A stretch of DNA of 64,000 nucleotides from Haliotis cracherodii (taxonomy: Eukaryota), in NCBI RefSeq assembly GCF_022045235.1, contig NW_027266286.1:1255856-1319855 (forward strand), written 5' to 3'. This document shows, piece after piece, positions 3,776 to 51,954 of the stretch. The number at the start of each line of letters is the position of its first letter. Positions within the stretch are counted from its first letter, which is position 1. The position numbers and the translations under genes are program-made. A model generated the notes under the pieces. It did no database searches, was not told the origin of the DNA, and was given only the letters and a program-made list of their open reading frames with translations.

Positions 3776-4993
3776 TAGGCCATGAGAAGTACTGCCATTC
3801 AATATTACCAATCTACTAGAGCTTCAAGAATTTTCCTCTATTCAGTTTTCAAATTTGGAATCAATATTTTTTCAAAGGGTTGCCTGGAATGGAAGTCACT
3901 AGTTTAAGCTCAAGAAGCTTTCTCATTGGCTAATGTCGACTTCCTGCTAACTATGTCATTGGTCGGTCAAAGTTCACGAAAGGTCGTTCTGCAGTGACCT
4001 GTAATGGGATATCCTCAGATCTATGTGTAGCGGTAGCACACTGAGATCTAGTTTTAATGAGACTGGGTGTGGTCAAGCCAGGGATCCTTATCAGCGAGAA
4101 TCTGGGACCCCTCTACACTGATCACAGACACTGACAAATAAATATAGCAGAGTAGCAACTGGTTTACTTGTGAATACATGGCTGCTGATCAAATAACATC
4201 TAACATCTCGTAACAGGGATGAATTCAGTGATTCTATATTGTGTACATAAACTAATCATTTTAATCTTATTTCAGGTTTTAGTGATCTGGCAGACGACGA
4301 CTTGTCTATATATAACTTGCAATCAGTTGTCAGTCCAGCTGCCTCTTGTTGTTATGTTTCCTGGACAGTTCTGTGTCACAGGGCTGGTTCCTTTAGGTTT
4401 GTGGTATTAAGTCTACTTGGATTGATCTATTTTTATATCAGTGTGTTTGCTGTCTTAACAATAGCAGCACACTGCCCTCCAGTTGTAGTTTTGGCCAACT
4501 GAGAGGATGCCTGGCCTGCCAGCGGTTGTAGTGTTACTGTCCAACATAACATCCCTTCTAGACCATAACACAGTGGCATCATATCTTCTCCAACACTTCC
4601 ATGTTCCCTTATTATTGTCCATCAGTATCGTCGTTCTTTCAACCGAATGTCCATTTGTTTTTTTCCCTACACAACTTATATTCAAGGCACTAACGTCATA
4701 ACTAATGACATTTCATAGATAACAAAACAGGCACAATGCTTTTATCGAATTATATTCCAAAGGAATAAAAGGGTTTCCATGACAACAACGCTGATAATGG
4801 TGTAAACGATATGCATAATAAAACCATATATGCTTGTGACCTTACAGTACTTCATCAACAACACACAAAACATGTGTAACAGAGTTACGGATGACAAAAT
4901 GAAATAATATATATTATGCAGCATATACCAAAACAAAGTACAGCAAAATTAACAAAACATCCATTTTGCTGTGTATCCCCGAACACCAATCTA

Positions 4994-5427
4994 ACACACC
5001 ATAGTCTTGGTACTATTGTTTATCTTCTCCACGGTGTTTACAAGTTCTGGGAACAGAAGATGGAACATCCTTCCCAGTGTCTTCGTCTTCTGACGTTCTC
5101 CCAGATCACCCAACATCTTCGCTGCCGCAGTCAGCCAATCATCTGCCAGTTCCAGTGATTGACAGACGAGGGGGTGTTTCTTATCCATTGCTTTGCAAAA
5201 CTGGATTCCTTGACTCAGTGATAGAAATATCTCAGACACGTCCATTCTCTGAGATATGGTTGCCAACTCGATTTTACTGGAAAGAATCTTGCCCAATTCC
5301 CTTTCGCCATCTTTGAGCAGACGGTCATCTGTCAGGGGGAATAACTCTGGGCAGAGAACCTCCAAGATGACAAGAATAGTTATCACTGTAGCAACAAGAT
5401 CTTGGATGTCTCCTGTGACACTTGTGC
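4994..5427 (-). CDS. PARP4: PARP4-like terminal coding exon (..TSVTGDIQDLVATVITILVILEVLCPELFPLTDDRLLKDGERELGKILSSKIELATISQRMDVSEIFLSLSQGIQFCKAMDKKHPLVCQSLELADDWLTAAAKMLGDLGERQKTKTLGRMFHLLFPELVNTVEKINNSTKTMVC). Stop TAG at 4991-4993.
   Basis: Acceptor aaaccttttgcag|GC completes the Gly codon from the previous exon. Aligns with human PARP4 C-terminus ..ECLLDLIATMLVLQFIRTRL..PWAFEAIKQASEWVRR..CPRLELGNDWDSATKQLLG. Confidence 0.85.
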
Positions 5428-6049
5428 CTGCAAAAGGTTTGAGACAGAATTACAGCAACACAATTACAACACGTCTACCTAAGCTGAAATCAACCTGTGT
5501 ATGGTTTGAGACAGAATTACAGTAACACAATTACAACACGATGTCTACCTAAGCGGAAATCAACCTGCGTACGGTAGTAATGACAACTCAACATGCAAGG
5601 TAAGGAATCCTGTTTGAAATAGCTACAGATGCTGTGATTAGTCCATCAACTTCACTATTGTCTAAACATATACTCACCACCAAAAGAAACCTATAGAGAA
5701 GTATGTACGTAAAGAAGAGACGTTTCCAATGTGTACCACAGAACTATCAGCCACGGGTTACTGCTGAGTTACTTTATTCTTATCACGATATGCTACATGT
5801 GATTTCCAAACTTTACATCTAGAGTCACGGATCTATGACATCACATGTGATGCGTTCATGAGCGTCCATTCACACAACATAACAGTATGTTCGTTTATGC
5901 ATCGAACCAATCTAATATCTCTTGAATATGAGTAATTCTTCATATATCAACCCAAATGTATGGTATGCGTGTTTCTTTTGGCGGTGAGTATACACATGAG
6001 AACACACAGTGTGTGGCCTTAGTTTGTCATCATGGAAGAAAATAGAAGA

Positions 6050-6320
6050 CTGAGTGAGTGAGTTGGGCTTGACGCCGCTTTTAACAGTATTCCAGTCACA
6101 GCGTGTCAGCTTAATGTGTGTGTAAAGCCGGAAGTGATGCAGGTCTCAGACGTTTACCACTTCTGTGAAACCCATGAGCACAGGTATGGTGCTGACAAAC
6201 CTAGAAACATAATCAGGGCGAACCGGGATTCAAACCCACATTCATAGGTTTCTGGCGTGCCCAAGGGACACAACTCTGCACAGCGAATAGTGGTGCCTTA
6301 GACGACTTGGCCACCTGGGC
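6050..6320 (-). mobile_element. SINE family B copy, about 280 bp. Long tRNA-like head GGGGGCACAGGTGGCCCAGTCGTCTAA..GGGTTCGAATCCCGGTTCGCCC on the minus strand, the same core as family A, (GAGT)n tail.
   Basis: Further copies at 16745-17020, 42480-42765 and 45900-46195 (all minus). Partial copies at 21035-21165 (minus), 19338-19400 and 51985-52095 (plus). Confidence 0.75.
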
Positions 6321-6534
6321 CCCCAGATAATAGGAGAATATGATAGAATGCTGTTAATCCAAACCAATCTAATGACAGTGTGACATTGAATGTGTTCTTA
6401 ATACACCCTGAACAGTATTTCACTCATACGCCAGTCAAAGAAAAGTACCACTGTTAAAAGCCCATGACTACGTGTGTCTAGCCAAGGGTCGTAATCAGGG
6501 ATGCAAACCCATGACCAGCAGATCCTGCTCCATT

Positions 6535-6835
6535 AGTCTTTTGTTTGTTTGTTGTTTAACGCCCACTCAGCAATATTCCAGCTATATGACGGCGGTTTGT
6601 TAAATAATCAAGTCAGGGCCTGACAATCCAGTGATTGACATCATGAGCATGATTCATGCAATTGGGATCGATGACATGCATCAACCAAGTCAGCGAGCCT
6701 GACCACCCGATCCCGTTAGTCGCCTCTTCAGACAAACATACTCTCCTTTTGTGGCTAGCATGGGTTGCTGAAGACCTGTTCTACCCGGGATCTTCACGGT
6801 TCTCCGGGTCAGTGAGTTGTGACAACCTATACCAC
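6535..6835 (-). mobile_element. Repeat family C copy, about 290 bp. (TTGT)n at its plus-strand start, core ..ctcagcaatattccagctatatgacggcgg.., internal duplicated gtcgcctcttacgacaagcat.
   Basis: Further copies at 11200-11445, 21880-22140, 32285-32545, 58475-58770 and 63935-64000 (same orientation), and 16245-16500 (opposite). Strand call assumes the (AACA)n-type run is a 3' tail. Confidence 0.6.
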
Positions 6836-7292
6836 TCGGCCTCTGCCGTGTTACGAAGAAGGAGCACAGACAAGGTCCTTCTTCCACAAGTATATCACAG
6901 CAACAGACAGACTCCCATCATAGACCAATGACAGTCGTATACAGCCTTATGATGGCATCGTGGACTGAGACCAGGATATTTACAGGGAGCTTCGGTGAAC
7001 CAGTGCACAGTTGCTTCCCCTTGGGCATGCCAGGAACCGAGGACCATTGGTTCGAATCTTAGATCTCGCCTTCTTGGCTTGTCAGCACCCGTGCTCGTGG
7101 ATTTCACCCAAGTAGTAAATGTCTAAGACCTGCATCACTTTGGGCTTTCTTTCCACATCAAACTGACGCACTGTGAAATTGCAGACAATTAAATATTCTT
7201 TTGTTTCTTTTAAGAAATATTGTATTGAAAATTCAGTTACATTATTCTCAAAACAAGACAATAAGACTCATGAACTGTTTGGAAACCGTTAC

Positions 7293-7392
7293 CTAGAGAC
7301 CGAAGTCCAGCCTTCATCAACAGTTCCCTGTAGTCATGGCTACGGATGCACAAAGCTGTATCAAGGGCACTGCCGAATCGCCATGATCCATC
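7293..7392 (-). CDS. PARP4: PARP4-like penultimate exon (DGSWRFGSALDTALCIRSHDYRELLMKAGLRSL).
   Basis: Acceptor gtcttttgtcag|GAT, donor TAG|gtaacg (phase 1). Human has DGFWKLTPELGLILNLNTNGLHSFLKQKGIQSL. Confidence 0.8.
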
Positions 7393-7519
7393 CTGACAAA
7401 AGACATAATCACATAAAATGTTGCACACGGCAAGAAACGTAATGCACGAGTACACAGTAGAATATACTCTTCTCATAGCTGAATCAACTTGTACGGAATT
7501 ATTGTAATGACCAAGGGGA

Positions 7520-7705
7520 CAGAGAGTGATTGTGTGAGTGAGTGAGTATGGTTTTATGCTGTTTTTAGCAATATTCCAGCAATATCACAGCAGGGGACAC
7601 CAGAACTGGGCTTCACACATTGTACCCATGTTGGGATTCAAACCTGGGTCTTCTGCGTGACGAGCGAACACTTTAGCCACTAGGCTACCCGATCGCCCCC
7701 CAAGG
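7520..7705 (-). mobile_element. SINE family A copy with (GAGT)n at its plus-strand start.
   Basis: Sequence identity to the other family A copies. Confidence 0.75.
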
Positions 7706-7749
7706 GGACAGCTCAAGAGTTGTTGGAAAATGTCTTATTCTTTATTTGG

Positions 7750-8110
7750 AGGGGGGACGATGAAATTCTCATTTAAGTAAGATCTTAGTGTTCACCACTA
7801 CTAGGCAAAGTTCTGATGACATCCCATTACAGGTCACATCAGAATTCATGCAACCAACCAGAGTGTCATTTACAAGGCAGTGAAAGTGACAGCCGGAGTG
7901 TGTTTCCTAATCATGCAAACCTAAAAAATGTCAAGCGGTATGACAGATTCCGAATGCTAGACATCGTCTATCTCTTACTTGAATCGAAGTGACTTTCATG
8001 GGTAATAGTGCCATACAACCTCGGCCATTCATTTGACATTACTAAATTCTTTTGGTTCAGTTTGCAAATTTGGAATCAAGAACTTTGTCAAAATATTTTT
8101 CAAAGCATAG
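7750..8110. repeat. Dispersed repeat family F copy. The related copy is at about 3400-3900, there split by a family A SINE.
   Basis: Shared blocks gaaagtgacagccggagtgtgtttc, aatcatgca..aaaaatgt and ttcagtttgcaaatttggaatcaag. Confidence 0.5.
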
Positions 8111-8270
8111 TCTGGTAGTCATGTACAGAATTTTGTTTGATACTTCTAGCGGCATTCCATTTGTATTTAACTCAGGTGAAGTTATTGTAACGAATGTGTC
8201 GTTGGTATTGATCAAAGCTTAATGGAGAAATAATACCCTGGATTAACGAGGATGCTTGACGCCCACTCAC

Positions 8271-8827
8271 CTGATTCTGTAGTCGGAGGATGATCTGGAT
8301 ATTGTCTTGAGGTATGGGGGCCATGTAGTGGGATGCAGCAGTGGTCACATGATCCCCGAGTTCAAGTCCTGGTGGTGCCGCCCCTCCCATCCCATCTCTG
8401 AACCCTGTGGTGCTGCCACACATCAGACTGCTAGACGGAGATTGGAAGCTGACTGACATCTTTCCTCCATGGGAATCATGAGTGATGCTACTGAGGCCTG
8501 TTGTCTCTTGAGCCACATCCATCAGCTGGTCAGCAAGGGATACTAGGGATGTCCTGTTGATCCCTTGTGACGGGGAAAACAGCTGAGACGCCATGTGTGC
8601 GAAGGGACTAGGTCCCTGGGATATTCCAGAGACCACAAATTCTGCAGAGTGTTTGTTTACTGTGCTAGTCACTCCAACCGCCACTGGTGGCTTGCATATA
8701 GTTCTCGGGAAACCTGGACTGACAGATGGGGCTCCACCTCCTCCTCCAAACAGTAATGGCATTCCATCAAAGACGGGATGAGACGGAGCTGGAACATCGG
8801 CCATAGGTATCTCATCTGGATGGGGCA

Positions 8828-8858
<31 letters not shown>

Positions 8859-10055
8859 CTGTTGCTGTGGCATTCCAAAACCCCTACTCTCATATGTTTG
8901 TGGCATTGCATTCTTTGTTCCAAACAGGGAACTACTTTTCTCAGGAGATGGATATGCAAATATTGGATGAATAGGTAAATCCTGGAATCCTGGGGGTTTC
9001 TGCTTGAAGCTGTCCGTGTGAGATGGCACTTGCACATTACAACCAAATCCAGATCCAAAGGAAGATTTTTCAGCATGTTTAGACGCATCTACTGCTCCGA
9101 ATGACAAACAAGTGGAAGCCATTGTTGAACCACCAAATCCAGATCCAAAGGAGGATTTTTCAGCATGTTTAGACGCATCTACTGCTCCGAATGAGAAACC
9201 TGTTGCAGCCGTTGTTGAACCACCAAATCCAGATCCAAAGGAAGATTTTTCAGCATGTTTAGACGCATCTACTGCTCCGAATGACAAACAAGTGGAAGCC
9301 ATTGTTGAACCACCAAATCCAGACCCAAAGGAGGATTTTTCAGCATGTTTAGACGCATCTACTGCTCCGAATGAGAAACAAGTGGAAGCCGTTGTTGAAC
9401 CACCAAATCCAGATCCAAAGGAGGATTTTTCAGCATGTTTAGACGCATCTACTGCGCCGAATGAGAAACCTGTTGCAGCCGTTGTTGAACCACCAAATCC
9501 AGACCCAAAGGAGGATTTTTCAGCATGTTTAGACGCATCTACTGCTCCAAATGAGAAACCTGTTGCAGCCGTTGTTGAACCACCAAATCCAGATCCAAAG
9601 GAGGATTTTTCAGCATGTTTAGACGCATCTACTGCTCCGAATGAGAAATTTGCTGGCTTTCCCACTAGACTGTCTGCCTGCATACTCTGCGAAGCAGGTA
9701 CCACCATGCCAGAGCTCCCAAATCCAGATCCACGTGTCACATGACTGACGTGTTGGAGTCCCGGCAGTACCACTCCCTCCTTCCTGTCTGGGGGCATGCC
9801 TGAACCACCAACTGTACATCCAAGTGAAAAGTTGATTGGGAAATCCAGTTCTGCTCCACTTGGACTCACGCTCCAACCATCATATGGAGTTCGAAGTAGT
9901 TGCTTCTCTGTCCTTTTGTGCGTCATACCAGCTTGTGTTTCTTCTGCTTCTTGTTCGAGAATGTAAGAACTGTCAATGTCCATCCCGAAGAGATCTTCCT
10001 CTGGCTGTTCTCCCAAGAAGCCAAATGACTTCACGTTTTCTCCCACACCTGTCAT
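8271..10055 (-). CDS. PARP4: Giant low-complexity exon of PARP4-like. Acidic FG motif GEQPEEDLFGMDIDS at the N-terminal end. About 7 repeats of a 40-aa unit (ANFSFGAVDASKHAEKSSFGSGFGGSTTAATGFS), encoded by a 120-bp DNA tandem repeat at about 9050-9660. Q13 run from a CTG-type microsatellite at 8830-8870. Gly/Pro-rich segment. Ends ..HYMAPIPQDNIQIILRLQNQ.
   Basis: Open frame of 595 codons on the minus strand, ending at a strong donor CAG|gtgagt (8265-8270). The tail IPQDNIQIILRLQNQ plus the next exon DGSWRF aligns with human PARP4 VPWTELLSLQTE-DGFWKL. The 5' boundary is unresolved: candidate acceptor acag|GT at 10049/10048, otherwise ATG at 10053-10055. The ORF-track ORF continues artefactually to 8172. 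Confidence 0.65.
9050..9660. repeat. 120-bp coding tandem repeat, about 5 units, inside the giant PARP4-like exon. Encodes the 40-aa FG repeat.
   Basis: Near-identical 120-mers. The plus-strand ORF 9112-9744 is its antisense artefact. Confidence 0.85.
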
Positions 10056-10057
10056 AA

Positions 10058-10500
10058 CATAGCCAGCAAGGTATTATTGGTCGGTGACGATTGTACATAG
10101 CCAGCAAGGTATTATTGGTCGGTGACGATTGTACATAGCCAGCAAGGTATTATTGGTCGGTGATGATTGTACACAGCCAGGAAGGTATTATTGGTCGGTG
10201 ATGATTGTACATAGCCAGCAAGGTATTATTGGTCGGTGATGATTGTACATAGCCAGCAAGGTATTATTGGTCGGTGACGATTGTACATAGCCAGCAAGGT
10301 ATTATTGGTCGGTGATGATTGTACATAGCCAGCAAGGTATTATTGGTCGGAGACGATTGTACATAGCCAGCAAGGTATTATTGGTCGGTGACGATTGTAC
10401 ATAGCCAGCAAGGTATTATTGGTCGGTGACGATTGTACATAGCCAGCAAGGTATTATTGGTTGGTGATGATTATACATAGCCAGCAAGGTATTATTGGTC
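10058..10500. repeat. 39-bp minisatellite, about 11 units (catagccagcaaggtattattggtcggtgacgattgta), immediately upstream of the giant exon.
   Basis: Direct periodicity. Confidence 0.9.
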
Positions 10501-10739
10501 GGTAACAATTGTCCAAACTATTTGTGAAGTGGAATGTCCCGAAGTCACGAGGGCAATCGCGATGACAAATTAAATTTTAAAGTTGAAAGGGATACAGTGA
10601 TTATCTAGATACATCTACTTGTGTCAACAGTTTAAATAAAATGAAAAAAAATAGGATTATCAACACATTTAACCATATATAACTATATATTGTATGCACT
10701 TTACCAGTTTATTTACACGTCTGGCAAATGTACTGTACA

Positions 10740-12802: not shown

Positions 12803-13465
12803 TCAATTCAAGCTGGGGGACACTACCCATCCGAGGATCAGGGCGTGTGTCAAATCTCCCACAAAGAAGCTGGGTTGAATATTGAGGCTGGTCAATAACC
12901 TTCTTCAGCTGTGTGCCACCACCTATTTGATTAAGCAGGGAAGCCCGACTAAAACTTCTCGTAGCTTGCATTTTTGAGCATTGGAACAGCTCCCCTACCG
13001 CAGGGAGTGGTGGTGGGGGTGGGGGTGGTGGCATTCTTCCTAATGCCGCTTTTCTGGGCATGGCCTCCTGTCTGACAGACTGCAGTGGCGGCGCAGCTCT
13101 GAAGAATGAATAGATGAATGAACATCCACCCCTACCTCTACCTCTATCCCCACCCCTACCTCTATCCCCAACCCCACCCCTACCTCTACCCCTACTCCCA
13201 CCCCCATCCCCACCTCCACCGTCATCAAACAATCCAAACCCCATATCTTCATCGTCTGACTCCTCTGACTCATCCAACTCGTCATCAAGGCAGCTGGCTG
13301 CCACGCTATCACCCAGGTTGGCTTGTACTGATTCTATGGCTGACGCAATGTCTAAGTCCCCAGTCTTAACCAACATGTCACGCATTCTACGTGGTTCCAA
13401 TTCTTCCAAATTCTCCTCAAAGGGTTCTTCTGGCAACAATTTGCCTGATAGCATATTGGTGGCAT
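12537..13465 (-). CDS. Coding-like exon or ORF, frame A. Encodes an acidic segment (..ASCLDDELDESEESDDEDMGFGLFDD), an RGG/Gly-Arg repeat, poly-Pro, a WH2-like motif (RSFSRASLLNQIGGGTQLKKV), and further poly-Pro runs.
   Basis: Excellent acceptor ttttttgttttag|AT at 13466-13467. Open frame to a stop at 12537. Same strand and inside the PARP4-like span. Could be a lineage-specific disordered PARP4 exon or a nested Pro-rich WH2-type gene. The composition partly follows C/G-rich low-complexity DNA, so the ORF may be over-extended. Confidence 0.4.
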
Positions 13466-16744: not shown

Positions 16745-17020
16745 GAGTGAGTAAGTGAGTGAGGGAGGTGGGTTTAACCCCGCTTTTAACAGTATTCCAG
16801 CTTCATGTGGGAGGAAAGCCAGATGTGATGCAGGTCTCAGACGTTTACCACTTCGGTGAAACCCACGAGTACAGGTACGGTGCTGACAAACCTAGAAACA
16901 TAATCAGGGCGAACCGGGATTCGAACCCTCAATCATAGGTTTCTGGCATGCCCAAGGGATGCAATTCTGCGCAGAGAATTGCGGCACATTAGACGACTGG
17001 GCCACCTGTGCCCCCCCTAT
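16745..17020 (-). mobile_element. SINE family B copy.
   Basis: Sequence identity to the other family B copies. Confidence 0.75.
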
Positions 17021-20880: not shown

Positions 20881-22429
20881 AATTAATGCCATTGTTTGTG
20901 TGTCATCACTAACTGCCAGACATGATTCAATACACAAACAAACAAAGAAGCAGCACCTCCAATTTGCCTTTTTTAAGGACTTATGTTCATCTTTTGAAAA
21001 AAATCAATCAACCGGGTAATACTTTCCAAATAGGAACCTAAGGAACATAATTAGGGCGAACCGGGATTTGAACCCACAATCAGAGGTTTCTGGTGTGCCC
21101 AAGGGACACAACTCTACTCAGCAAATCGCGGCGCCTTAGACAACTGGGCCACCGTGCCCCCCATTCAGTCAAAGAGAATGTACAGCATTAATGCCCTGTT
21201 CTGTAGGCCCTGGGTTTTAGGACTGCCATGCCTGAGATAGTCATGGAACCTCCACAGGCAAACACTTTTCCGTTAACGTGTGATAAACTGTTTTACTTTC
21301 TGACATTCTTAACGCAAAATGCCCATGTATTGCTTTTAAACCTTGTTTAACGGTGAATATTGATGAAACTTTAGAATTAAATCCAGGGAAGGATGTAGAT
21401 CATAATAAAAAAATGTGTTTTATGATTTTCAACACTGGCCATTATACAGGGAACACCTTAGGTCACAGCATGAATCTCTTGAGAGTATATTTGTCTATTT
21501 GTTTTTAAACACCACACTCAGCGACATTCCATAAACAGTGTTGTGTAAAAATCTTGAATTACTAGAAAAATCATGATAGGAGCAAAATATCATTACCGTG
21601 CTTTGCCAAAGGAAACGATGACTCTTCCTGGAAAGAAAATCAGTAATTATGGAAACATTCAATTTTCTCTTAACTTACAATTGAATCTCAGATTCTAAGT
21701 GGCTGAGACCCATTCTATTAGTTTCAATGTACCCCGCTAACATGTAAGGTATATTTCTTAAGTTCCCCGCTCGAATTACTAAACTGCTGACATAACATTT
21801 GCAACATGCCAACTGCTATTCCGTATCTTGAATTAATGATGTAAGACGAAATTTCTCAAAAGCAGTATGACTGTTCTGTTCTGTTTGTTATTTAACGCCC
21901 TACTTAGCAATATTCCAGCTATATGATGGCGGTCTGTAAATAATCGAGTCTGGACCAGACAATCCAGTGATTGACATCATAAGCATCAATCCACATAATT
22001 GGGTTACAAACAAGTCAGCTAGCCTGACCTCCCGATCCTGTCAGTCGCCTCTTACGACAAGCATAGTCGCCTCTTACGACAAGCATGGGTTGCTGAAGAC
22101 CTATTCATGCCCGGATCTTCACGGGTCAGTATAACTGTAAGAAAATATAACAACTGTAAAAGAGGCTTGATTGAGTGAGTTTGAATGGGCAGTGATGAAC
22201 GAAGATGGGGGGACTCTGAATTATTTTGTACTGTCTTCCATAAATAATAACTGAGAACATATAAACCTCAACAGGTCAAGTGAAAATACTGCAGAACGAG
22301 GACAAAATATTATCTGCTTGTCCTGCAGGGCACGTACGGTTTAAGACATTCTAAGAGCCCTGGTGTTACTGTTAGAAACATTTCACCAGGAATAAGGGAC
22401 CAATCTCTTGTCCTCCATATCATGTGATA

Positions 22430-36625: not shown

Positions 36626-36889
36626 GTCGAAGGAGCCTTGACTTGCTTGCAAGGTTGCATACCTTAATCACGCCAGGATCCGCTGATCCTTGTTTTGAAT
36701 ACCAGATTCACCCCATTTATGAACCTTGGTCTGCGAGTGCTACAGCTGTGTTCGTGGATTTCACCTAAGTAATATATGTCTACACTATGCAGCTATTGGC
36801 TTTCCTCCCACATAAAGCTAACACAAATGATATTAATGAAACAAAGAATTAAGCCTGCACAAAACATAACCTAGGGAAATATGATCCGA

Positions 36890-37425
36890 GAATTATCCCA
36901 CTCTAACTGAATGTCTCTCCACCGACAAACCAGAGCATTGTTCTACCTGATGCATGTCTCTCCGACAACAATCCAGAGCATTGTTCCTACCTGATGCATG
37001 TCTCTCCGACAACAACCCAGAGCATTGTTCCTACCTGATGCATGTCTCTCCGACCACAAACCAGAGCATTGTTCCTACCTGATGCATGTCTCTCCGACCA
37101 CAAACCAGAGCATTGTTCCTACCTGATGCATGTCTCTCCGACCACAATCCAGAGCATTGTTCCTACTTGATGCATGTCTCTCCGACCACAAACCAGAGCA
37201 TTGTTCCTACCTGATGCATGTCTCTCCGACCACAATCCAGAGCATTGTTCCTACTTGATGCATGTCTCTCCGAACACAAACCAGAGCACTGTTCCTACCT
37301 GATGCATGTCTCTCCACCGACAAACCAGAGCATTGTTCCTACCTGATGCATGTCTCTCCGCCCACAATCCAGAGCATTGTTCCTACCTGGTGCATGTCTC
37401 TCTCTGGATGTCTCTCCACCCACAT
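36890..37425. repeat. 60-bp minisatellite, about 9 units (ctctccgaccacaaaccagagcattgttcctacctgatgcatgt). The first unit provides the exon 17 donor.
   Basis: Direct periodicity. Confidence 0.9.
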
Positions 37426-39959: not shown

Positions 39960-40200
39960 CATACAATACAGAATCTCTTAATCCCTGTCAATCATTTAGG
40001 CCCATGACCTTCACTGATGACCTTCACCTCTAACTTACATCCCTGTCCATCAGATAAGCCCCATGACCTTCACTGATGACCTTCACCTCTAACTTATATC
40101 CCTGTCCATCAGATAGCCCATGACCTTCACTGATGACCTTCACCTCTAACTTACCGGCGTCTCCTCATCCCTGTCCATCAAATAGGCCCCATGACCTTCA
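39960..40200. repeat. 60-bp tandem repeat, about 4 units, overlapping the exon 14 donor region.
   Basis: Direct periodicity. Confidence 0.8.
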
Positions 40201-41159: not shown

Positions 41160-42425
41160 AGGAATAGGGAATATAGGGAACACGGTGAATATAGGGAACA
41201 CAGTGAATATAGGGAACATGGTGAATATAGGGAACACAGTGAATATAGGGAACACAGTGAATATAGGGAACACAGTGAATATAGGGAACATGGTGAATAT
41301 AGGGAACATGGTGAATATAGGGAACACAGTGAATATAGGGAACACAGTGAATATAGGGAACACAGTGAATATAGGGAACACGGTGAATATAGGGAACATG
41401 GTGAATATAGGGAACACAGTGAATATAGGGAACACAGTGAATATAGGGAACACAGTGAATATAGGGAACATGGTGAATATAGGGAACACAGTGAATATAG
41501 GGAACACGGTGAATATAGGGAACACAGTGAATATAGGGAACACGGTGAATATAGGGAACATGGTGAATATAGGGAACACAGTGAATATAGGGAACACAGT
41601 GAATATAGGGAACACGGTGAATATAGGGAACACGGTGAATATAGGGAACATGGTGAATATAGGGAACATGGTGAATATAGGGAACACGGTGAATATAGGG
41701 AACACAGTGAATATAGGGAACATGGTGAATATAGGGAACATGGTGAATATAGGGAACACAGTGAATATAGGGAACACACTTAATATAGGGAACACAGTGA
41801 ATATAGGGAACATGGTGAATATAGGGAACATGGTGAATATAGGGAACACAGTTAATATAGGGAACACAGTGAATATAGGTAACACAGTGAATATAGGGAA
41901 CACGGTGAATATAGGGAACACGGTGAATATAGGGAACACACAGTGAATATAGGGAACACAGTGAATATAGAGAACACGGTGAATATAGGGAACACAGTGA
42001 ATATAGGGAACACAGTGAATATAGGGAACACAGTGAATATAGGGAACACAGTGAATATAGGGAACACAGTTAATATAGGGAACACAGTGAATATAGGGAA
42101 AAAAGTGAATATAGGGAACACAGTGAATATAGGGAACATGGTGAATATAGGGAACACAGTTAATATAGGGAACACAGTGAATATAGGGAACACAGTGAAT
42201 ATAGGGAACACAGTGAATATAGGGAACACAGTGAATATAGGGAACATGGTGAATATAGGGAACATGGTGAATATAGGGAACACAGTGAATATAGGGAACA
42301 TGGTGAATATAGGGAACATGGTGAATATAGGGAACACAGTGAATATAGGGAACATGGTGAATATAGGGAACACACAGTGAATATAGGGAACACAGTGAAT
42401 ATAGGGAACACAGTGAATATAGAAC
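41160..42425. repeat. 21-bp minisatellite, about 60 units (gtgaatatagggaacacagtg), intronic between exons 12 and 13.
   Basis: Direct periodicity. Five large ORF-track ORFs (40995-42518 and others) are artefacts of it. Confidence 0.95.
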
Positions 42426-42479
42426 AATAAGAACTGATGAGATGAGGAGCATATTGATGGACAGCTGTAGAAACTGGTA

Positions 42480-42765
42480 GAGTGAGTGAGTGAGTGAGTG
42501 AGTTGGGTTTAATGCCACTTTAACAGATTTCCAGTTATATCACAGCGTGGGAGTATTGATGCAGGTCTGGGACGTTTACCACTTCGATGAAACCCATGAG
42601 CACAGATATGGTGTTGACAAACCTAGAAACATAATTGGGGCGAACCGGAATTTGAACCCACAATCAAAGGTTTCTGGCATGCCCAAGGGACGCAACTCTG
42701 CACAGCGAATTACGGTGCCTTCGACAACTGTGCCACCCGTGCCCCCTGCGACTGGTAGCGGCCCC
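42480..42765 (-). mobile_element. SINE family B copy, intronic, about 130 bp below PARP4-like exon 12.
   Basis: Sequence identity to the other family B copies. Confidence 0.75.
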
Positions 42766-44746: not shown

Positions 44747-44854
44747 CTGAAAACAGGAACACACTGACAGTTGAACACCACAAACACAATAACACTCAAG
44801 ATAGTGGCAATAGTTATTTGAATAATTCCGTCATTTTACTTCAATAAAACCAAC

Positions 44855-44992
44855 CGTGATAATATTCCCACAAAGTTTTCTGGCTTGGATGCGTGGAACA
44901 GGAGCCGTTTTGGATCAATATCGTGGCGGAAGTTGGTTTCTTCGATGGGGCGTTGCACCTCATACACAGCCTTGACCTCCATCTTGACATCT
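44855..44992 (-). CDS. PARP4: PARP4-like exon 9, PARP catalytic domain (DVKMEVKAVYEVQRPIEETNFRHDIDPKRLLFHASKPENFVGILS).
   Basis: Acceptor ttgtcag|A, donor CG|gttggt (weak GT donor). Canonical PARP motif RLLxHGS..NxxGILSxGL. Confidence 0.75.
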
Positions 44993-45432
44993 CTGACAAA
45001 ACAAGGACATCATTCTCACAAGAACATCGAACTAAAATAACAATCAAATCCTGACAAATACATGCAACAGTTCCATCAACTTTTACTTAGCTCAGAACGA
45101 AACATGCATTTCATGCTAGTAATGAATATTTCCGTGTTTTCAAAGTAAGGTGTGACCCCTGGGAATTCTGGGCCAGATCTGTTCCAATGCCTTCCTACAA
45201 GAGCTGACTTATTAGAGCCGAGAAGTGGGTGGTTACAATGTCTGGCGTGGCTGATTACGTGGATTTCACAGGTAAACATTATGTGGTTTCATATTTGCAG
45301 GTTGTTTTTACTTTTCGAGGCCTGGAAATATTAGAACCAAAAACGTTAGCATAACCTAATGTCAATTGATACTGCATAACCTAATATCAATTGAATCTGT
45401 TAAAATACAAAAGTCATCTGTTATTTTTCACT

Positions 45433-45457
45433 GCTCTCTCTCTCTCTCTCTCTCTCG
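45433..45457. repeat. (CT)12 microsatellite.
   Basis: Direct. Confidence 0.9.
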
Positions 45458-45714
45458 GCAACTGGCGACTATGTTTCTCGTAAGAGTGACTATTCTTGTT
45501 CTTAGAGACGACCAATGATGTCAATCCTGGGCCCACTTGCACAAAGCGATCTTAGCGCTACAACTATTGTAAGCCTATGTTAAAGTATGGGAGTTACGAC
45601 CATCAGATTATTTACTGTGATTATTATTCCTGTGACCCTACCTATTTTTTCAAGCAGATTGCAGCACACTCACAGACCAGTGACTCAGCTGAAATAACAG
45701 CTTGTGATGCTTAC

Positions 45715-45875
45715 CCTTCCAAAGATGATTCAACAAGGTCCCGCACCAACTTGTGTTGAGGGTCATGTGACTTGAGGTGGTCGATGTTGCATCGCAGGGC
45801 TCGGTACTTGGCCTCAGCGCTGCTTCTAGTTGACCAGTTGGTGGCCTCACTCACGGAGATCATGTCACGGATCAA
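45715..45875 (-). CDS. PARP4: PARP4-like exon 8, start of PARP catalytic region (LIRDMISVSEATNWSTRSSAEAKYRALRCNIDHLKSHDPQHKLVRDLVESSLE).
   Basis: Acceptor gtttccag|TTG, donor AGG|gtaagc. AKYRALRC is identical to human PARP4; LIRDM also matches. Confidence 0.85.
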
Positions 45876-45899
45876 CTGGAAACATCAATGAATAATCAC

Positions 45900-46195
45900 C
45901 AATAGGGGGGGGAGTGAGTGAGTGAGTTAGGTTTAACAACGCTTTTAACATTGGTCCAGTTATATCACGGCGTGTCAGCTTAATGTGGGAGGAAAGCCAG
46001 AAGTGATGCAGGTCTCAGACGTTTACCACTTCGGTGAAACCCACGAGCAAGGTATGGTGATGACAAACCTAGAAACATAACCGGGGCGAACAGGAATTCG
46101 AACCCACAATGATAGGTTTCTGGCATGACCAAGAGACGCAACTCTGCACAGCGAATTGCGGCACCTGAGACGACTGGGCCACCCGTGCGCCCCTC
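45900..46195 (-). mobile_element. SINE family B copy, starting about 30 bp upstream of the PARP4-like exon 8 acceptor.
   Basis: Sequence identity to the other family B copies. Confidence 0.75.
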
Positions 46196-46639
46196 ACCAA
46201 TAGGAAAGTGTTTTTGTATGGGCTCAATGATCATTTATCTGCAAAATGACTAACATCTGTCCAACACAAATGTTTCTTCACAAATTATTAAGCAACAAAA
46301 TTGAGTTTAGTCTGTTGCCACATTATTTAACAGTAAATAAGTTCTCCACAAAATATACTACTCAAAAGAAGTAAAGAGCCAACCGATTCTCTCATATTAC
46401 GATAGTTAATCTTCCATTGCATCAGGGGGTCCTTAACTTCTTATGAGTAGTATACTTTATGTTCCTTCATATTTGTGAGGAATACATATCTGCATGATCC
46501 CACAAACAGCACATGGTTTGCCTGTAAAGTCATGTTCGCATAATGCATAGAGTGTGTTGCATGGCCGTCGCCATGGATACTATTGGAAGTGCAGACCTAT
46601 TTGCTAACTTTATCTGCCATGGTCGAAGGGTCAAACATA

Positions 46640-46930
46640 CTCCATATGTACTCCATACTCAATACTCCAGCTATATGACAGGCCTGTAAATAATCAGGTC
46701 TGGACCAGAAAAACCAGTGACTGATATTATGAGCAACAATCCAAGTTGTCGGATCATAATGACATGCAAGCAAACCAGTCAACCAGTTTTACACATTGAT
46801 GCATGTCATCCCATTGCATAGATCAATGCTCATGTCAGTCACCAGATTGTCTGTTTCAGATTTGATTACTTATTGATTGATGTCAAACAGCTGGAATATT
46901 GCTGAGTGTGGACATTAAATAACAAACAAA
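46640..46930. mobile_element. Inverted pair of two partial family C copies (46650-46800 in one orientation, 46790-46930 in the other), forming a potential long hairpin in the PARP4-like intron.
   Basis: The two halves match opposite-orientation segments of family C. Confidence 0.5.
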
Positions 46931-46984
46931 CCATGCAGCAATGTGCAACATGCACCAACTCACACACCAGGTACAGCGCGGTAG

Positions 46985-47100
46985 GATAGCCTAGTGGTTA
47001 AAGCGTTCTCTCATGACACTGACCCAGGTGAAGCCCATTTCTTGTGTCCCCTGCCGTGATATTGCTGAAATATTGCTAATAGAGGCGTAAAACCATACCA
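46985..47100 (+). mobile_element. SINE family A copy, 5' portion. Ends about 40 bp from the PARP4-like exon 7 donor.
   Basis: Sequence identity to the other family A copies. Confidence 0.7.
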
Positions 47101-47139
47101 GGTACCCCACACAGTCAGACTGAGAGTGAAGTTACCCAC

Positions 47140-47307
47140 CTGACACAGGTCGAGTTTGGTCGCCACCCACTGTTTGCTGACATCTTGTTCCGGGTGTCGG
47201 TGCGGCAGGGCTTCGTAGAAGTCGCTCTTCAGGGAGTGGAGCCGGTCAGTCTTGTTGGCCGTCAGACTCTCCTGGATCTGCATCAAGATGGCCTCCGCCT
47301 TCTCCAG
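47140..47307 (-). CDS. PARP4: PARP4-like exon 7, PARP regulatory domain (LEKAEAILMQIQESLTANKTDRLHSLKSDFYEALPHRHPEQDVSKQWVATKLDLCQ).
   Basis: Acceptor ccctgttgcag|CTG, donor CAG|gtgggt. Aligns with human AEGILLLVKAALKNGETAEQLQKMMTEFYRLIPHKGTMPKEVNLGLLAKKADLCQ. Confidence 0.8.
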
Positions 47308-48062
47308 CTGCAACAGGGACAACATGGCTGATTACTTCTCCCAGGACACAGCAGAAGGTAAGTAGGTCTCATCAGCACCCTATTGCTCCCCAACTTCTTT
47401 CAGTTTCCTTGGCACCTACCCCATATCTTTACCATGTCTTAGACACCCCACTTTTTTGGCCCTATTTCTTTGGCACCTCACCCCATTTCATTGGTACCCC
47501 ATTTCTTTGGACCCCTACCAGATTTCATTAGCACCATACTGTTTCTTTGGCAACCTGCTCTCATTGAAAGCATCCTGTTTCAATGTCTAATTTCATCCCA
47601 TCCTGCCCTCTATCTACCTGATCTGTTTGTTAATGCACCTTGAGCAAGAGAATTCCCGAAACAAATCTGAAATTCAAACCCACTATCAGTGGATCCATCA
47701 CAACGAAGGGAAGCAACTCTTCACCCAAAGTATTACTTGAACATGAAGCCTACAGGGGGATGTTTGTAGTAGCTAGATTCCCTTCAAGGTCAGAGGCGAT
47801 GTCACTATATCCATATTAATGTTTGGCAACAGAATTAATTCTTTTCTTCTAAAACCTACTGCACAACTGCACTGGATGGATTTTCTCCATGAAAACATGA
47901 AACAAAATATGCATTAAAATGTTTCTCCAGCGACTGGGTAAGTAACTAGAACTATTGTCCGAGCACTGGGTAATGTTGAACTCGTTGAAATCATTGTAAG
48001 CAAATAATAGAAGACATAAACAGATATGTCACTATGATAGAACTTCAAGTCTGGAGTCTTAC

Positions 48063-48200
48063 CTGGTCCATCTTCACTTTGTCTACTGGTGCTGTGATGA
48101 CCTCAGTTATCTCCCCTGCAACCTCACGCCACACATGTTCAACAAGGTCAGCCACATCAGGGTCAAGGTCATTACTTTCCGAAGGTAACTCTGCCAAAAT
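48063..48200 (-). CDS. PARP4: PARP4-like exon 6, PARP helical/regulatory domain (ILAELPSESNDLDPDVADLVEHVWREVAGEITEVITAPVDKVKMDQ).
   Basis: Acceptor ctgttccag|ATT, donor CAG|gtaaga. Aligns with human STLSQEVSDLVEMIWAEALGHLEHMLLKPVNRISLNDVSK. Confidence 0.75.
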
Positions 48201-48634
48201 CTGGAACAGTGTGATGAAAACAGACATTCACCTCAACCATCACAAAGAAACAAGTTGTATTTATACAAAATGCAGAATTCATCATGGCGCTCCCAACATG
48301 TTTGATGAGTCCTGATGAATACATTCGTAGACAAGACATGTACTACTCTGAGTGTTTAATGTCAAAATATATTCTCCTTTGCAGATGTTATTATTGTTAT
48401 TGTCAAAAAGATTCATTTTCGTTCAGTTTTGTATTACCGTATTCAACGTAATAAGTGCCCCCACTCCAATAAGCACCCAACTTTACCTGCTGATTACCAG
48501 TACTTCTTGGTTGGAGCGCCTTGGGCGCTTCTTATGTCGGTAATTAATGTCAAAATACATTTTACTTGTTAGTTTTCTTGTTGTTAATGTCAACATATAT
48601 TCCTCACTGTTTATGTTGGTGTGAGGTATTTCAC

Positions 48635-48799
48635 CTTTTGCAGTTTTGGAGAGCCAATATTCCTGGCGACTTTCCTCCCGGTAATGGCAGCCATCTTCTT
48701 GCTTGGCTGTGTCTGCTCCTTGTAGACATTACCAAATATGGCCAGAATTTCCTCCGATGTTTTGGCGTACCTACATTCTCTACAGCAGTTATACCCTTC
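48635..48799 (-). CDS. PARP4: PARP4-like exon 5 (EGYNCCRECRYAKTSEEILAIFGNVYKEQTQPSKKMAAITGRKVARNIGSPKLQK).
   Basis: Acceptor tgttttcag|GAA, donor AAG|gtgaaa. KTSEEILAIFGNVYKEQTQ resembles human KKTSEDASEYFENYIEELKKQ. Confidence 0.75.
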
Positions 48800-49135
48800 C
48801 TGAAAACAGACATAACACAATGACATGTCTGGAAATGTTCACAGCCCATAAAACATTCCCACTAGAAATGAAATGAATGAGGACATATTTAGAACCACAA
48901 AGTTAACACCACACACACACTCATAGCAAGATATGATAGTTACTCTAATGTCTCACAAGATCTTTTAATGGCCTATTCCAATCTATTTTTAACTACTACC
49001 TGTTAAGAGAGTGTCCTTTTGTGTAAAACCCCACATCTTCATACAGTAATGGATAACAAATGTCACTTTGGCACACGTTTTCTCCACATCAACTAGAAAC
49101 ACGACTTGACCCTCATGCATGTTACAAGTGGTCAC

Positions 49136-49273
49136 CTGTGCATCCTTGAGGCTGCCGTAGTGTGTGTACACCCTGAAGCAGGGGTCCTCCGCGTCCTTGT
49201 TCTGGTGCTGGGAGTCAGTCACGTGGATCTCCAGCACATAGAAAGTAGTCATCTCCATCTTCTTATCATAGCC
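49136..49273 (-). CDS. PARP4: PARP4-like exon 4 (GYDKKMEMTTFYVLEIHVTDSQHQNKDAEDPCFRVYTHYGSLKDAQ).
   Basis: Acceptor cttgttcag|GGC, donor CAG|gtgacc. Aligns with human VGMEGGQEAVVVELQCSRDSRDCPFLISSHFLLDDGMETRRQ. Confidence 0.75.
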
Positions 49274-49284
49274 CTGAACAAGAT

Positions 49285-50340
49285 TGAACAACATGAGACA
49301 TCATGGGACAACATAGGACAAGATTGGACAACATAGGACAAGATTGGACAACATAGGACAAGATTGGACAACATAGGACAAGATGGGACAACACAGAACA
49401 AGATTGGACAACATAGGACAAGATTGGACAACATAGGACAAGATTGGACAACATAGGACAACATAGGATGGTGACCGGGAGGGAGTGTGTGAGTGAGGGG
49501 ATTAAGTTTCATGCTGATCATGTCTGTGTTGTGAGTGGATTGTCAAATTAATGTGGGAAGAAACTACTAATGTGAGTCAAAGAAACTACTGATGTGAGTC
49601 AAGGAAACTACTGAAGTGAGTCAAGGAAACTACTGAAGTGAGTCAAGGAAACTACTAATGTGAGTCAAGGAAACTACTGATGTGAGTCAAGGAAACTACT
49701 GATGTGAGTCAAGGAAACTACTAATGTGAGTCAAGGAAACTACTGAAGTGAGTCAAGGAAACTACTGAAGTGAGTCAAGGAAACTACTGATGTGAGTCAA
49801 GGAAACTACTGATGTGAGTCAAGGAAACTACTGAAGTGAGTCAAGGAAACTACTGAAGTGAGTCAAGGAAACTACTGATGTGAGTCAAGGAAACTACTGA
49901 TGTGAGTCAAGGAAACTACTGATGTGAGTCAAGGAAACTACTGAAGTGAGTCAAGGAAACTACTGATGTGAGTCAAGGAAACTACTGATGTGAGTCAAGG
50001 AAACTACTGATGTGAGTCAACATCAGGCAATGGTAGGGGCTTTAATATCAGGCAATGGTAGGGGCTTCAATATCACTTATCAGGTAATAGTAGGGGCTTC
50101 AACATCAGGCAATGGTAGAGGCTTCAATATCAGGCAATGGTAGGGGCTTCAATATCAGGCAATGGTAGGGGCTTCAATATCAGGCATTGGTAGGGGCTTC
50201 AATATCAGGCAATGGTAGGGGCTTCAATATCAGGCAATGGTAGGGGCTTCAATATCAGGCAATGGTAGGGGCTTCAATATCACTTATCGGGCAATGGTAG
50301 GGGCTTCAATATCAGGCAATGGTTGGGACTTCAATATCAG
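49285..50340. repeat. Three consecutive 30-bp minisatellites: gattggacaacataggacaa about 6 units at 49285-49460, tgagtcaaggaaactactgatg about 15 units at 49560-50020, and atcaggcaatggtaggggcttcaat about 10 units at 50020-50340.
   Basis: Direct periodicity. Confidence 0.9.
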
Positions 50341-50486
50341 GCAATGGTAGAGTTGGCACAAATTTCATACACAGAGTTGGGCTTATCTGACAACTGAGAG
50401 TTATTCACGGTCTCATTTGATCACTGGTACTTGACTAACAACAGACCCACATCCCAGAAGAAGAACATAATCATCATCTTGCTTAC

Positions 50487-50629
50487 TTCAAACACGGCAT
50501 GTTTTGCAACTTCATATTTGTCTTCATCAAAGAACGGCGCCTTGTTGTCCCCATACTGCCATACTTTAACCCCCTTGATGCCAAAGATGGACTTGGTCTT
50601 CTTCCTCTGCTCAGTCTTTGGCTGGAGCG
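50487..50629 (-). CDS. PARP4: PARP4-like exon 3 (LQPKTEQRKKTKSIFGIKGVKVWQYGDNKAPFFDEDKYEVAKHAVFE).
   Basis: Acceptor ccag|CG, donor GAA|gtaagc. Phase continues from the previous exon (G+CG). DEDKYEVAKHAVFE resembles human PQDFEVAKYNTLEK. Confidence 0.7.
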
Positions 50630-50867
50630 CTGGAATCAAGGGTTAACATCCATATTTACAACACTAAAATACAAACATCATCATTTCTAGTAATCTAAAC
50701 TTCGATTTACATTTATTCAACTCAGTGACTACACACAGAGCATCATCAACTGTCCAGGGTATTCTATCTCATTTGCTTCCACAACTTTGTTTTAAGTCTA
50801 ATTCAAATAACATGATGTTAAAAATAGGTGTCTTATAAATTTACACTCATGAGTGTATATTAGTGAC

Positions 50868-51040
50868 AAGCGTGAGAGAGTCTGGTTTTACAGCGCTTTT
50901 AGCAATATTCCAGCCATATCACGGTGGGGGACACCAGAAATGGGCTTCACACATTATACCCCTCTGGGGAATCAAACCCGGGACTTCAGCATGATGAGCA
51001 AACGCTTTAACCACCAGACTACCCCATCACCCCAGTGACA
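50868..51040 (-). mobile_element. SINE family A copy.
   Basis: Sequence identity to the other family A copies. Confidence 0.75.
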
Positions 51041-51143
51041 CGAGAGATAGAAAGATGGCCTCACTTCAGAATAAAGTTTTGGTGACTAAAGCTTTCTGGT
51101 CACTCATGCTAGTTGATTCAATGGACAATGGAATAATTTTAAC

Positions 51144-51342
51144 CTGTAATTTTCCCTGACTTGAAATCCGATGTCTTGCTCCTCCCTCCAATGATGTACT
51201 CGTCAGTGAGAGGCAGTTTGCCATGTTTAATGGCGTCTGACACATACTCAGGGGAGACAACTGGAATGTGGTATTTGACAGCCATCCTACATTTTGATGA
51301 CACATCAAACTTCTCTGGATCATTTCCAACGACATGGGTTGT
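51144..51342 (-). CDS. PARP4: PARP4-like exon 2, BRCT domain (TTHVVGNDPEKFDVSSKCRMAVKYHIPVVSPEYVSDAIKHGKLPLTDEYIIGGRSKTSDFKSGKIT).
   Basis: Acceptor cttacttgacgcag|ACA, donor ACAG|gttaaa (phase 1). Aligns with human CTHIILDNADVLSQYQLNSIQKNHVHIANPDFIWKSIREKRLLDVKNYDPYKP. Confidence 0.7.
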
Positions 51343-51825
51343 CTGCGTCAAGTAAGAAGGAATATTGTAATTTAACAGAAAATGTAAAAAATCTGCTACA
51401 ACAGAGATAACATCTGCAACCACACTGAAAGTAATTACTTAGTTTGCAATCAAGTCCAGATGTTTTAGATAAGACAAGATTATGAAGATAAGACTTGAAG
51501 GGAAATTCATATTGCACAGTTGATTAGCAAATATATTATATAAAAATATGCACATAAGAAAATATGACACTTACTAATAAGCGCATTATCCACTTGATAC
51601 TTTTAATTATGCCTTATGCTCGGGTACGCACTACACTCCAGAAAGTATGGTACATGGCCTGATAATTTTATAAAAATTCTTGAAGAGTTTTAGATCAACT
51701 TTGATGAAATAAATATATGTACATATATGTTAATGTTTCCAATCTTTAAGTCAACTTGTTGGCTCCATCATACTACCCAGAATTCCATCAAGTCTATTTT
51801 TGTTTATGTCCAGCCAGGACAGTAC

Positions 51826-51954
51826 CTTTTTTGTGACGATGAAAGAAACAATGCCCCCGTTGTCCAGTATCTTCTTCTTTATCTCAACTTTCTTCTTGAA
51901 GCTGACGCTTGTTGTGAGATCGAGGGCAATCACACACGTAGAGAAGACACCCAT
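51826..51954 (-). CDS. PARP4: PARP4-like exon 1. Starts at ATG 51952-51954, encodes MGVFSTCVIALDLTTSVSFKKKVEIKKKILDNGGIVSFIVTKK (BRCT N-terminal part), donor AAG|gtactg.
   Basis: Kozak-like caacATGG. Resembles human PARP4 N-terminus (MVMGIFANCIFCLKVKYL..KKKLQTDIKENGGKFSFSL). Phase matches the next exon. Confidence 0.7.

Follow-up and report, generated by a model that had tools for sequence, protein, structure and literature searches.

A probable PARP4 (vault PARP) gene of at least 31 exons in an abalone genome, with a predicted vault-binding MINT domain beyond a long low-complexity linker

The stretch of Haliotis cracherodii DNA considered here (the window; 64,000 nucleotides of contig NW_027266286.1, positions 1,255,856 to 1,319,855) is intron-rich and full of minisatellites. 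From 51954 to 4991 its minus strand is very probably taken up by one protein-coding gene, which is the PARP4 (vault PARP) of a Haliotis-like vetigastropod and orthologous to that of other animals. As rebuilt, it has 31 exons with 7,085 coding nucleotides; the modelled introns are all GT-AG and in phase, and the sole stop codon is the terminal one. At least 31 exons and a product of approximately 2,360–2,400 amino acids are predicted. The start codon (ATG, 51954) and the stop codon (4993-4991) are those given in an earlier note on this DNA, which had proposed a single minus-strand gene encoding, in order, BRCT, PARP helical, PARP catalytic, VIT and vWA domains and a PARP4-specific C-terminal tail; that order is borne out. 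There is nothing unusual in this orthologue, PARP4 being well known, and an annotated, if short, congener already exists: the Haliotis rubra 'protein mono-ADP-ribosyltransferase PARP4-like' (P0121; 1,249 amino acids; contig QXJH01000247.1).

The exons were located with 120 PARP4-type proteins, recovered by a first database search and used as tblastn queries against the window. On the minus strand these gave 25 exon clusters in collinear order from 51945 down to 24412, and one further weak cluster at 5185-5108. GT and AG sites were enumerated around each cluster, and the phase-compatible pair which best reproduced the reference proteins was kept. Exons 1–25 (51954-24418) chain in frame through GT-AG introns only, without a stop codon, into 1,193 amino acids; exon 26 joins in phase 0 and brings the total to 1,241. 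P0121 is ~90% identical over exons 1–26 and crosses every modelled junction residue for residue. All exons and coding motifs below lie on the minus strand.

The BRCT domain begins in exon 1 (51954-51826; donor AAAG/gtactg), whose N-terminus (MGVFSTCVIALDL...) is identical to that of P0121, and is completed in exon 2 (51342-51144), with a Pfam BRCT match of E=8e-11 in the spliced product. The junctions recorded with exons 2 to 6 all read as in P0121: VTKK/TTHVVG for exon 2, GKIT-A-LQPK for exon 3 (50629-50487; phase 1 in), AVFE/GYDKK for exon 4 (49273-49136), KDAQ/EGYNCC for exon 5 (48799-48635) and KLQK/ILAELP for exon 6 (48200-48063; donor CCAG/gtaaga), in which the PARP helical domain starts. 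Exon 7 (47307-47140) is helical/regulatory, and its flanking pairs, 48063/47307 and 47140/45875, were picked with 4 and 12 reference proteins respectively. Exon 8 (45875-45715) contains AKYRALRC (45812-45789). The catalytic domain, aligned to that of human PARP4, occupies exon 9 (44992-44855), exon 10 (44746-44648), which follows an intron of 108 nucleotides and carries GLLLPKVV (44745-44722), exon 11 (44017-43834; pair 43834/43051 picked with 39 reference proteins) and exon 12 (43051-42895; donor TTGG/gtatgt, phase 1 out), where it ends.

VIT starts in exon 13 (41152-41019), whose acceptor ccacag/AT lies just past an 18-bp minisatellite. The earlier note had held that exons keep phase across GT-AG introns except in two places, one of them its exon 13/14 junction, presumably a minisatellite intron. 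The general statement stands. The exception does not: the intron in question, 42895/41152, contains 69 copies of the 18-bp unit and is a normal, canonical phase-1 GT-AG intron which reproduces the QDN-L-DLSDV of P0121. VIT continues through exon 14 (40379-40155; 96% identity to P0121; pair 40155/39878 picked with 67 reference proteins) and exon 15 (39878-39714), which carries DVFTVSVGNLPP (39878-39843). Exon 16 (39420-39307) is taken from the junction-refined model, and for exon 17 (37524-37387) the pair 37387/36167 was picked with 24 reference proteins. Two intronic minisatellites adjoin these exons. One, at 39977-40154 (59 bp × 3), starts at the end of exon 14 and repeats its last codons, with pseudo-exon copies (...SEGHGAYLMDRD) at 40104-40033; the other, at 36911-37402 (44 bp × 11), copies the exon 17 donor, so that identical potential donors recur every 44 nucleotides.

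The vWA domain opens in exon 18 (36167-35981) with a MIDAS-type motif, DLSNSMSG, and extends over exon 19 (34017-33944; 74 nucleotides, phase 1 in and 0 out), which matches GHRELFATSQ...FLK of P0121, exon 20 (33152-32965) and exon 21 (32259-32160; 97% identity to P0121). Exon 22 (30594-30424) is likewise 97% identical to P0121, and the junction-refined exon 23 (28020-27940) also matches it. Exon 24 (25201-25121) carries ALIRDWEDG (25177-25151) and exon 25 (24519-24418; donor TGAG/gtgagt) carries VTQFTSFVA (24462-24436). These two peptides, together with those in exons 8, 10 and 15, are the five which the earlier note had quoted; each occurs once, on the minus strand and in the order claimed. 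Exon 26 (23793-23650; DEKKGL...MDILEYVSWEVDKEAEEEE...) matches P0121 1192-1224 and human DVDFLPYMSW; it is in phase 0 at both ends, with the acceptor ttgccag/GAT and, as donor, ATG/gtagtg, the weakest of the set at 4.9 bits.

Compared with all PDB sequences, residues 1-1236 of the product of exons 1–26 align to human PARP4 3-1224 (E=1.9e-268, 897 bits), a score that chance could not produce, and the next families for the spliced product are PARP2 (79 bits), PARP1 (69 bits) and ITIH4 (59 bits). The top matches in three database searches were either named PARP4 or PARP4-like, or unnamed with an equal PARP-VIT-vWA domain set. Pfam places BRCT at residues 2-79 (E=8.1e-11; 42.4 bits against a cut-off of 21.3), the PARP catalytic domain at 410-575 (E=2.4e-31), VIT at 637-748 (E=1.1e-36) and VWA_3 at 884-1036 (E=5.4e-21), whilst the HD-ART region matches the human PARP4 crystal chain 8sx1 at E=3.8e-77, versus E=1.9e-21 for PARP2. 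The H-Y-E triad is intact: H447 (LLFHAS, exon 9), Y487 (GLYFAS, exon 10) and E557 (ADEYAVY, exon 12) align with LLHGS, IYFSD and DDEFVVY of the human enzyme. With the triad and the sequence of the fold which binds nicotinamide adenine dinucleotide (NAD+) conserved, NAD+-dependent ADP-ribosyltransferase activity is predicted.

It might be asked whether the gene belongs instead to another VIT/vWA or PARP family (ITIH, VWA5A or PARP1/2), since a VIT–vWA tandem alone would suit ITIH or VWA5A, ITIH4 aligning to residues 630-1201 of the product, and the catalytic domain also matches PARP1 and PARP2. However, BRCT and PARP domains precede VIT here and a MINT domain is present, whereas ITIH heavy chains and VWA5A are secreted proteins with a VIT–vWA core and none of these three. 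As the earlier note had held, the best matches are to PARP4 and not to PARP1/2, ITIH or VWA5A. Given the gulf between the PARP4 score and those of the other families, the probability of such an assignment is practically nil, and it can be regarded as already refuted.

Downstream of exon 26, five exons between 13465 and 4991, here X1, X2, the giant exon, the penultimate and the last, form a single open frame of 1,120 amino acids with GT-AG introns and one terminal stop. The giant exon (10048-8271; 1,778 nucleotides) encodes 6.7 FG-type repeats of 30 residues, a polyglutamine run (polyQ13) and the first helix of MINT. It starts at an acceptor, tgacag/GT (10.7 bits, phase 1), which fits after X2, and not at the ATG at 10055 which had been proposed; its donor is AATCAG/gtgagt. 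The penultimate exon (7392-7293; acceptor ttttgtcag/GAT, donor CTCTAG/gtaacg), absent, like X1 and X2, from the earlier list, encodes DGSWRFGSALDTAL...GLRSL of MINT and is matched in tblastn by more than 20 PARP4 C-termini. Its junction with the giant exon, LQNQ/DGSW, runs unbroken in homologues (for example LEQNQDGSWQF in P0150), as does GLRSL-G-TS across the last intron. The last exon (5427-4991; acceptor ttttgcag/GC), formerly thought to start at 5386, encodes the remainder of MINT and the tail, and ends with the stop codon at 4993-4991.

Scanned singly with Pfam, the open reading frames (ORFs) of the last exon, the giant exon and X1 gave nothing diagnostic, and the spliced product and homologue searches were therefore needed. 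The ORF 5449-4994 on its own has human PARP4 1652-1706 as its best match among PDB sequences (phmmer, E=0.09). Among 1.8 billion representative proteins, all scanned with HMMER, 17 are related to the last exon, the long ones being matched at their extreme C-terminus, after polyproline, FG-type repeats and an acidic MGFGLFD-type motif. The C-terminal 198 residues match human PARP4 1557-1706 (phmmer, E=2.5e-5) and the extreme C-termini of ~60 PARP4 and PARP4-like proteins of 1,700–2,900 amino acids, from sponges to fish and including fish PARP4, with E-values from 1e-3 to 4e-22. An AlphaFold model of these 198 residues, built from a 19-sequence alignment, has a predicted local distance difference test (pLDDT) score of 83.7 and a predicted template-modelling score (pTM) of 0.82. 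Foldseek finds one credible PDB match for it, 9bw6_B, the PARP4 MINT domain within the human vault (probability 1.00, target-normalised TM-score 0.66; next match 0.10). By homology and modelled fold, the product of the last three exons is the MINT domain, predicted to bind the vault; in human PARP4 this domain contacts the major vault protein (MVP) through K1618, S1614 and R1689 (PMC12280208).

Between vWA and MINT lies a predicted linker of ~900 residues, disordered and of low complexity, to which X1 and X2 contribute. X1 (13465-12697) carries a P-stalk-like tail, an RGG stretch, polyproline and a WH2-like motif. Its acceptor is the best of the gene (ttttgttttag/AT, 14.6 bits; phase 1 in), and its donor TAGCAG/gtgggc scores 9.2 bits. 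X2 (12575-12298) encodes polyproline and an RS/RD-rich run, and its donor CGGCAG/gtaaga (11.6 bits) is phase-matched to the giant exon. The frames of X1 and X2 are joined by a 121-nt GT-AG intron, 12696-12576 (donor 9.2, acceptor 6.6 bits), with no need for a frameshift. A 1-nt error in a C9 run at 12605-12597, which had been considered as a means of joining them, was replaced by this error-free and well-scoring intron; the intron is preferred and the error is a possible alternative. An intron over the G-rich RGG stretch (13214-13098) was also tried and rejected: strong as it is, the acceptor at 13098 does not keep the phase and runs into a stop. The G-rich RGG stretch from 13220 to 13125 may be coding.

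The second irregular place in the earlier note was the gap between exon 26 and the giant exon, with further exons predicted between 23650 and 10055. X1 and X2 fill part of this gap as canonical exons; something is still missing between 23650 and 13465, as that note had anticipated, and no small exon that convincingly links exon 26 to X1 was found there. Several observations weigh here against a single gene of the extent described. The model is drawn from genomic sequence only. Exon 26 ends in phase 0, X1 requires phase 1 and 10 kb separate them, so that at least one small exon must be missing or one of the sites must be wrong. A search from 23649 to 13466 for a single phase-0-to-1 exon, with position weight matrices trained on the splice sites of this gene, yielded only candidates of non-coding appearance. 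The only coding-like ORF in the gap is a tentative linking exon at 19553-19475 (MDIVEESGGYFGLGNSDEDLDFDLEL; phase 0 in, 1 out; codon-usage score 19), a candidate with a poor donor (-0.9 bits) and without homology support. The public H. rubra model ends after exon 26, at 1,249 amino acids, with no gene called in the 10 kb downstream, and an in-frame ATG nine codons into X1 may open a separate downstream transcript. As regards the domains, PARP_reg (residues 294-375; exon 7) scores 25.4 bits, just under the Pfam cut-off of 26.8, and a P-stalk hit below threshold is all that Pfam gives for the C-terminal half.

The sharpest form of this objection is that there are two transcription units, a 1,241-residue PARP4-like gene at 51954-23650 and a separate gene for a disordered protein with MINT at 13465-4991. 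Besides the end of P0121, the phase mismatch and the ATG in X1, it draws on database proteins which consist of linker and MINT only (P0141, P0148 and P0150-P0152; 740–960 amino acids). These, however, are unannotated, and short contigs went into the library which contains them. X1, for its part, looks like an internal exon, since it is entered in phase 1 through the strongest acceptor of the locus. The end of P0121 is itself suspect: its frame changes at a G-run (~42385) after MDILDYMGWE and a stop follows (QXJH01000247.1, ~42380-42633), whilst in the neighbouring frame an acidic ORF resembling exon 26 of the window continues. The H. rubra model has thus probably been shortened by a 1-nt homopolymer frameshift, and hence is without linker and MINT. 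X1 and the 19.5-kb candidate were not found at the H. rubra locus by blastn or tblastn, its 10-kb flank holding a retrotransposon and stopping short of them. A Logan contig from DRR299178, 95% identical to the window, was considered as cDNA but retains the intron and is genomic. Finally, full-length mollusc proteins unite both halves: exons 24–25 and the last two exons are matched within one polypeptide in Patella, Physella, Biomphalaria, Ruditapes and Sinanodonta, and the full-length query retrieves many PARP4 and PARP4-like proteins of 2,000–2,900 amino acids from molluscs, annelids, echinoderms, amphioxus, cnidarians and sponges. Two units thus appear improbable, and a transcript continuous from exon 26 to X1 is the expected state of the gene.

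The same frame problems could be taken as real lesions in a decaying or pseudogenised copy of PARP4, as the simple reading loses frame twice (23650-13465 and 12697-12575) and the locus is heavily invaded by minisatellites and repeats resembling short interspersed nuclear elements (SINEs). The second loss is nevertheless solved by the well-scoring 121-nt intron, and decay is difficult to reconcile with the lack of any in-frame stop across the whole coding sequence, with GT-AG at each modelled intron and with an intact catalytic triad. Furthermore, the conserved exons are 90–97% identical to H. rubra while the flanking introns barely align, a pattern of purifying selection. A pseudogene is accordingly a very remote prospect, and an intact PARP4 gene remains the preferred reading.

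Several short motifs in the linker call for comment. An acidic segment within X1, DESEESDDEDMGFGLFDD (13274-13221), resembles the tail of ribosomal P-stalk proteins and matches Pfam Ribosomal_60s at positions 72-88 of 88 (E=0.005; 17.8 bits, below the cut-off of 28.1). The P1/P2 stalk proteins consist of an N-terminal dimerisation domain, a flexible hinge and a C-terminal (S/E)DDDMGFGLFD tail. In the window the tail alone occurs, internal to the protein, and the segment, an exact copy of the tail motif, is a resemblance and not a sign of family membership; it is recorded as a lead, not a finding. Of 129 long PARP4-like proteins, 17 have an acidic MGFGLF-type motif in the linker; they come from sponges, an annelid, bivalves, gastropods, echinoderms, amphioxus and one fish. 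The WH2-like motif of X1, LLNQIGGGTQLKKV (12938-12897), fits the WH2 consensus, an amphipathic helix plus LKKV of the LLxxIxxGxxLKKV type, and scores 16.2 bits (E=0.008) against a Pfam cut-off of 23.1; two sponge PARP4-like proteins have a comparable motif, P0210 (Pfam E=1.9e-4) and P0214 (by motif pattern). The FG-type units of the giant exon stem from a coding tandem repeat at 9648-9042 (FSFGAVDASKHAEKSSFGSGFGGSTTAATG; 90 bp × 6.7, with 94% matches and no indels by Tandem Repeats Finder), with a weak Pfam Nucleoporin_FG match (E=0.0018). The polyQ13 run lies at 8867-8829. Both the repeat and this run are likely to vary in length between individuals.

In invertebrate relatives the region between vWA and MINT accommodates pieces of familiar host proteins. 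Among P0178, P0219, P0210, P0191, P0212, P0160 and P0163, Pfam identifies, all at significant scores, actin ~2-66, the substrate-binding part of HSP70, the C-terminal half of 14-3-3, the SNARE part of synaptobrevin, ubiquitin and an EF-hand pair. When the remaining introns of the window (23640-13466 and those between the downstream exons) were searched by tblastn with 146 PARP4-type proteins, linkers included, no match fell within an intron: each merely extended one of the last two exons, and no exons for ubiquitin, actin or other modules came to light. That PARP4 can have 14-3-3, actin and ubiquitin domains appended was already noted in 2014 (PMC4245714), and no functional reading of the linker modules beyond that domain survey was found in the literature. 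Such modules recur among the relatives. It is conceivable, if rather doubtful, that the linker is a lineage-variable array of conserved host-protein pieces, held in the vault beside an ADP-ribosyltransferase, and more than a spacer. In the window the pieces would be the exact P-stalk tail, the WH2-like motif, polyproline, the RS run, the RGG box and the FG repeats. If so, they could serve as baits or decoys for pathogen effectors or toxins which target those host proteins: ribosome-inactivating proteins, which dock on the P-stalk tail, toxins that modify actin, proteases that cleave SNAREs, and toxins activated by 14-3-3. Or they could act as docking sites, bringing translation GTPases, actin or SH3/EVH1 proteins into the vault as cargo. 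The linker is a mildly unexpected part of the gene, and the P-stalk-tail motif offers a small testable lead.

An ordinary gene, conserved and of housekeeping type, thus accounts for the window, and the surrounding large ORFs are mostly intronic minisatellites. The earlier note had stated that the ORF track shows none of the gene and that most of its large ORFs are minisatellite artefacts. Approximately half of the ORFs of at least 100 residues within the span are indeed minisatellite, but the track does hold the giant exon, X1, X2, the last exon and ORFs enclosing exons 4, 7, 12 and 21. A SINE-like interspersed repeat of ~230 bp is present in nine copies, in both orientations and with 69–90% mutual identity (6096-6324, 7003-7179, 16798-17016, 21035-21162, 36648-36824, 42557-42746, 45951-46300, 52019-52092 and 52372-52501). 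ARAGORN and Rfam detect no tRNA-like part in it, and Rfam and tRNA scans of the whole window were empty. Approximately 550 bp upstream of the PARP4 start codon begins a 3.3-kb GT-rich satellite (52510-55841; units of 7, 16, 23 and 39 bp; GC skew +0.45 to +0.51). At 1-827 there is a G-rich 33/38-bp minisatellite with G-quadruplex-like units, and 57292-57801 on the minus strand is a reverse-transcriptase fragment (Pfam RVT_1, E=3e-9). An ORF at 63375-63845 on the plus strand has a weak match to Ashwin (E=0.034). An Ashwin-like gene lies upstream of PARP4 both in the window and in H. rubra, where it is a divergently oriented neighbour, and synteny is thus conserved.

In human vaults, PARP4 resides by binding of its MINT to MVP repeats 3-5. 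MINT sits between the MVP repeat domains near the vault waist; thanks to the length and disorder of the linker, the N-terminal enzyme and the interaction domains can extend along the inner wall as far as towards the shoulder (PMC12280208, PMC10711553, 10.64898/2026.05.01.722283). By homology, the abalone MINT would fix the enzyme to the inside wall of the MVP cage, and the linker would allow the catalytic and interaction domains to hang in the vault lumen, where the enzyme could use NAD+ to ADP-ribosylate itself, MVP or cargo. For such a mechanism this gene appears to supply the prerequisites of sequence and predicted fold. Recent vault literature treats PARP4 binding as a vertebrate feature (PMC12280208). 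A MINT domain is recognisable in this abalone gene and in PARP4-like proteins of other invertebrates, sponges to amphioxus, which bears on that vertebrate-only view.

A near-complete PARP4 model for an abalone-type genome is thus available for comparison with the known proteins. H. rubra P0121 has identical exon junctions, the same high identity and the same upstream neighbour, but its introns are poorly conserved relative to the window, which marks the two as different species, and the public model, probably truncated, is without linker and MINT, the vault-anchoring domain. Human PARP4 (1,724 amino acids; PDB 9bw6, 9bw7, 11jf, 8sx1) agrees in domain order (BRCT, helical domain, ART with H-Y-E, VIT, vWA, disordered linker, MINT), in the fold of MINT and in having a large exon for the disordered linker. 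The two proteins are collinear from 1-1236 to 3-1224 and, with a query from which the linker was omitted, from 1232-1403 to 1557-1706. They differ in that the abalone product is ~650 residues longer, the extra being all in the linker, which has the exact P-stalk-tail motif, RGG box, WH2-like motif, RS run, FG-type repeats and polyQ. Furthermore, the abalone product gave no match to PF26166 and PF26156, two Pfam families specific to vertebrates, and the conserved MINT motif LELG..W reads LELADDW. Other full-length molluscs have ubiquitin, synaptobrevin, EF-hand, actin or HSP70 fragments in the linker, none of which is detectable in the window. Similar in length is the Patella caerulea hypothetical protein SNE40_018651 (P0157; 2,397 amino acids): its linker sequence as such does not align with that of the window, yet it shares the N-terminal domains and the module order of acidic MG(F/Y)GLF, polyproline, WH2-like motif, FG-type repeats and MINT.

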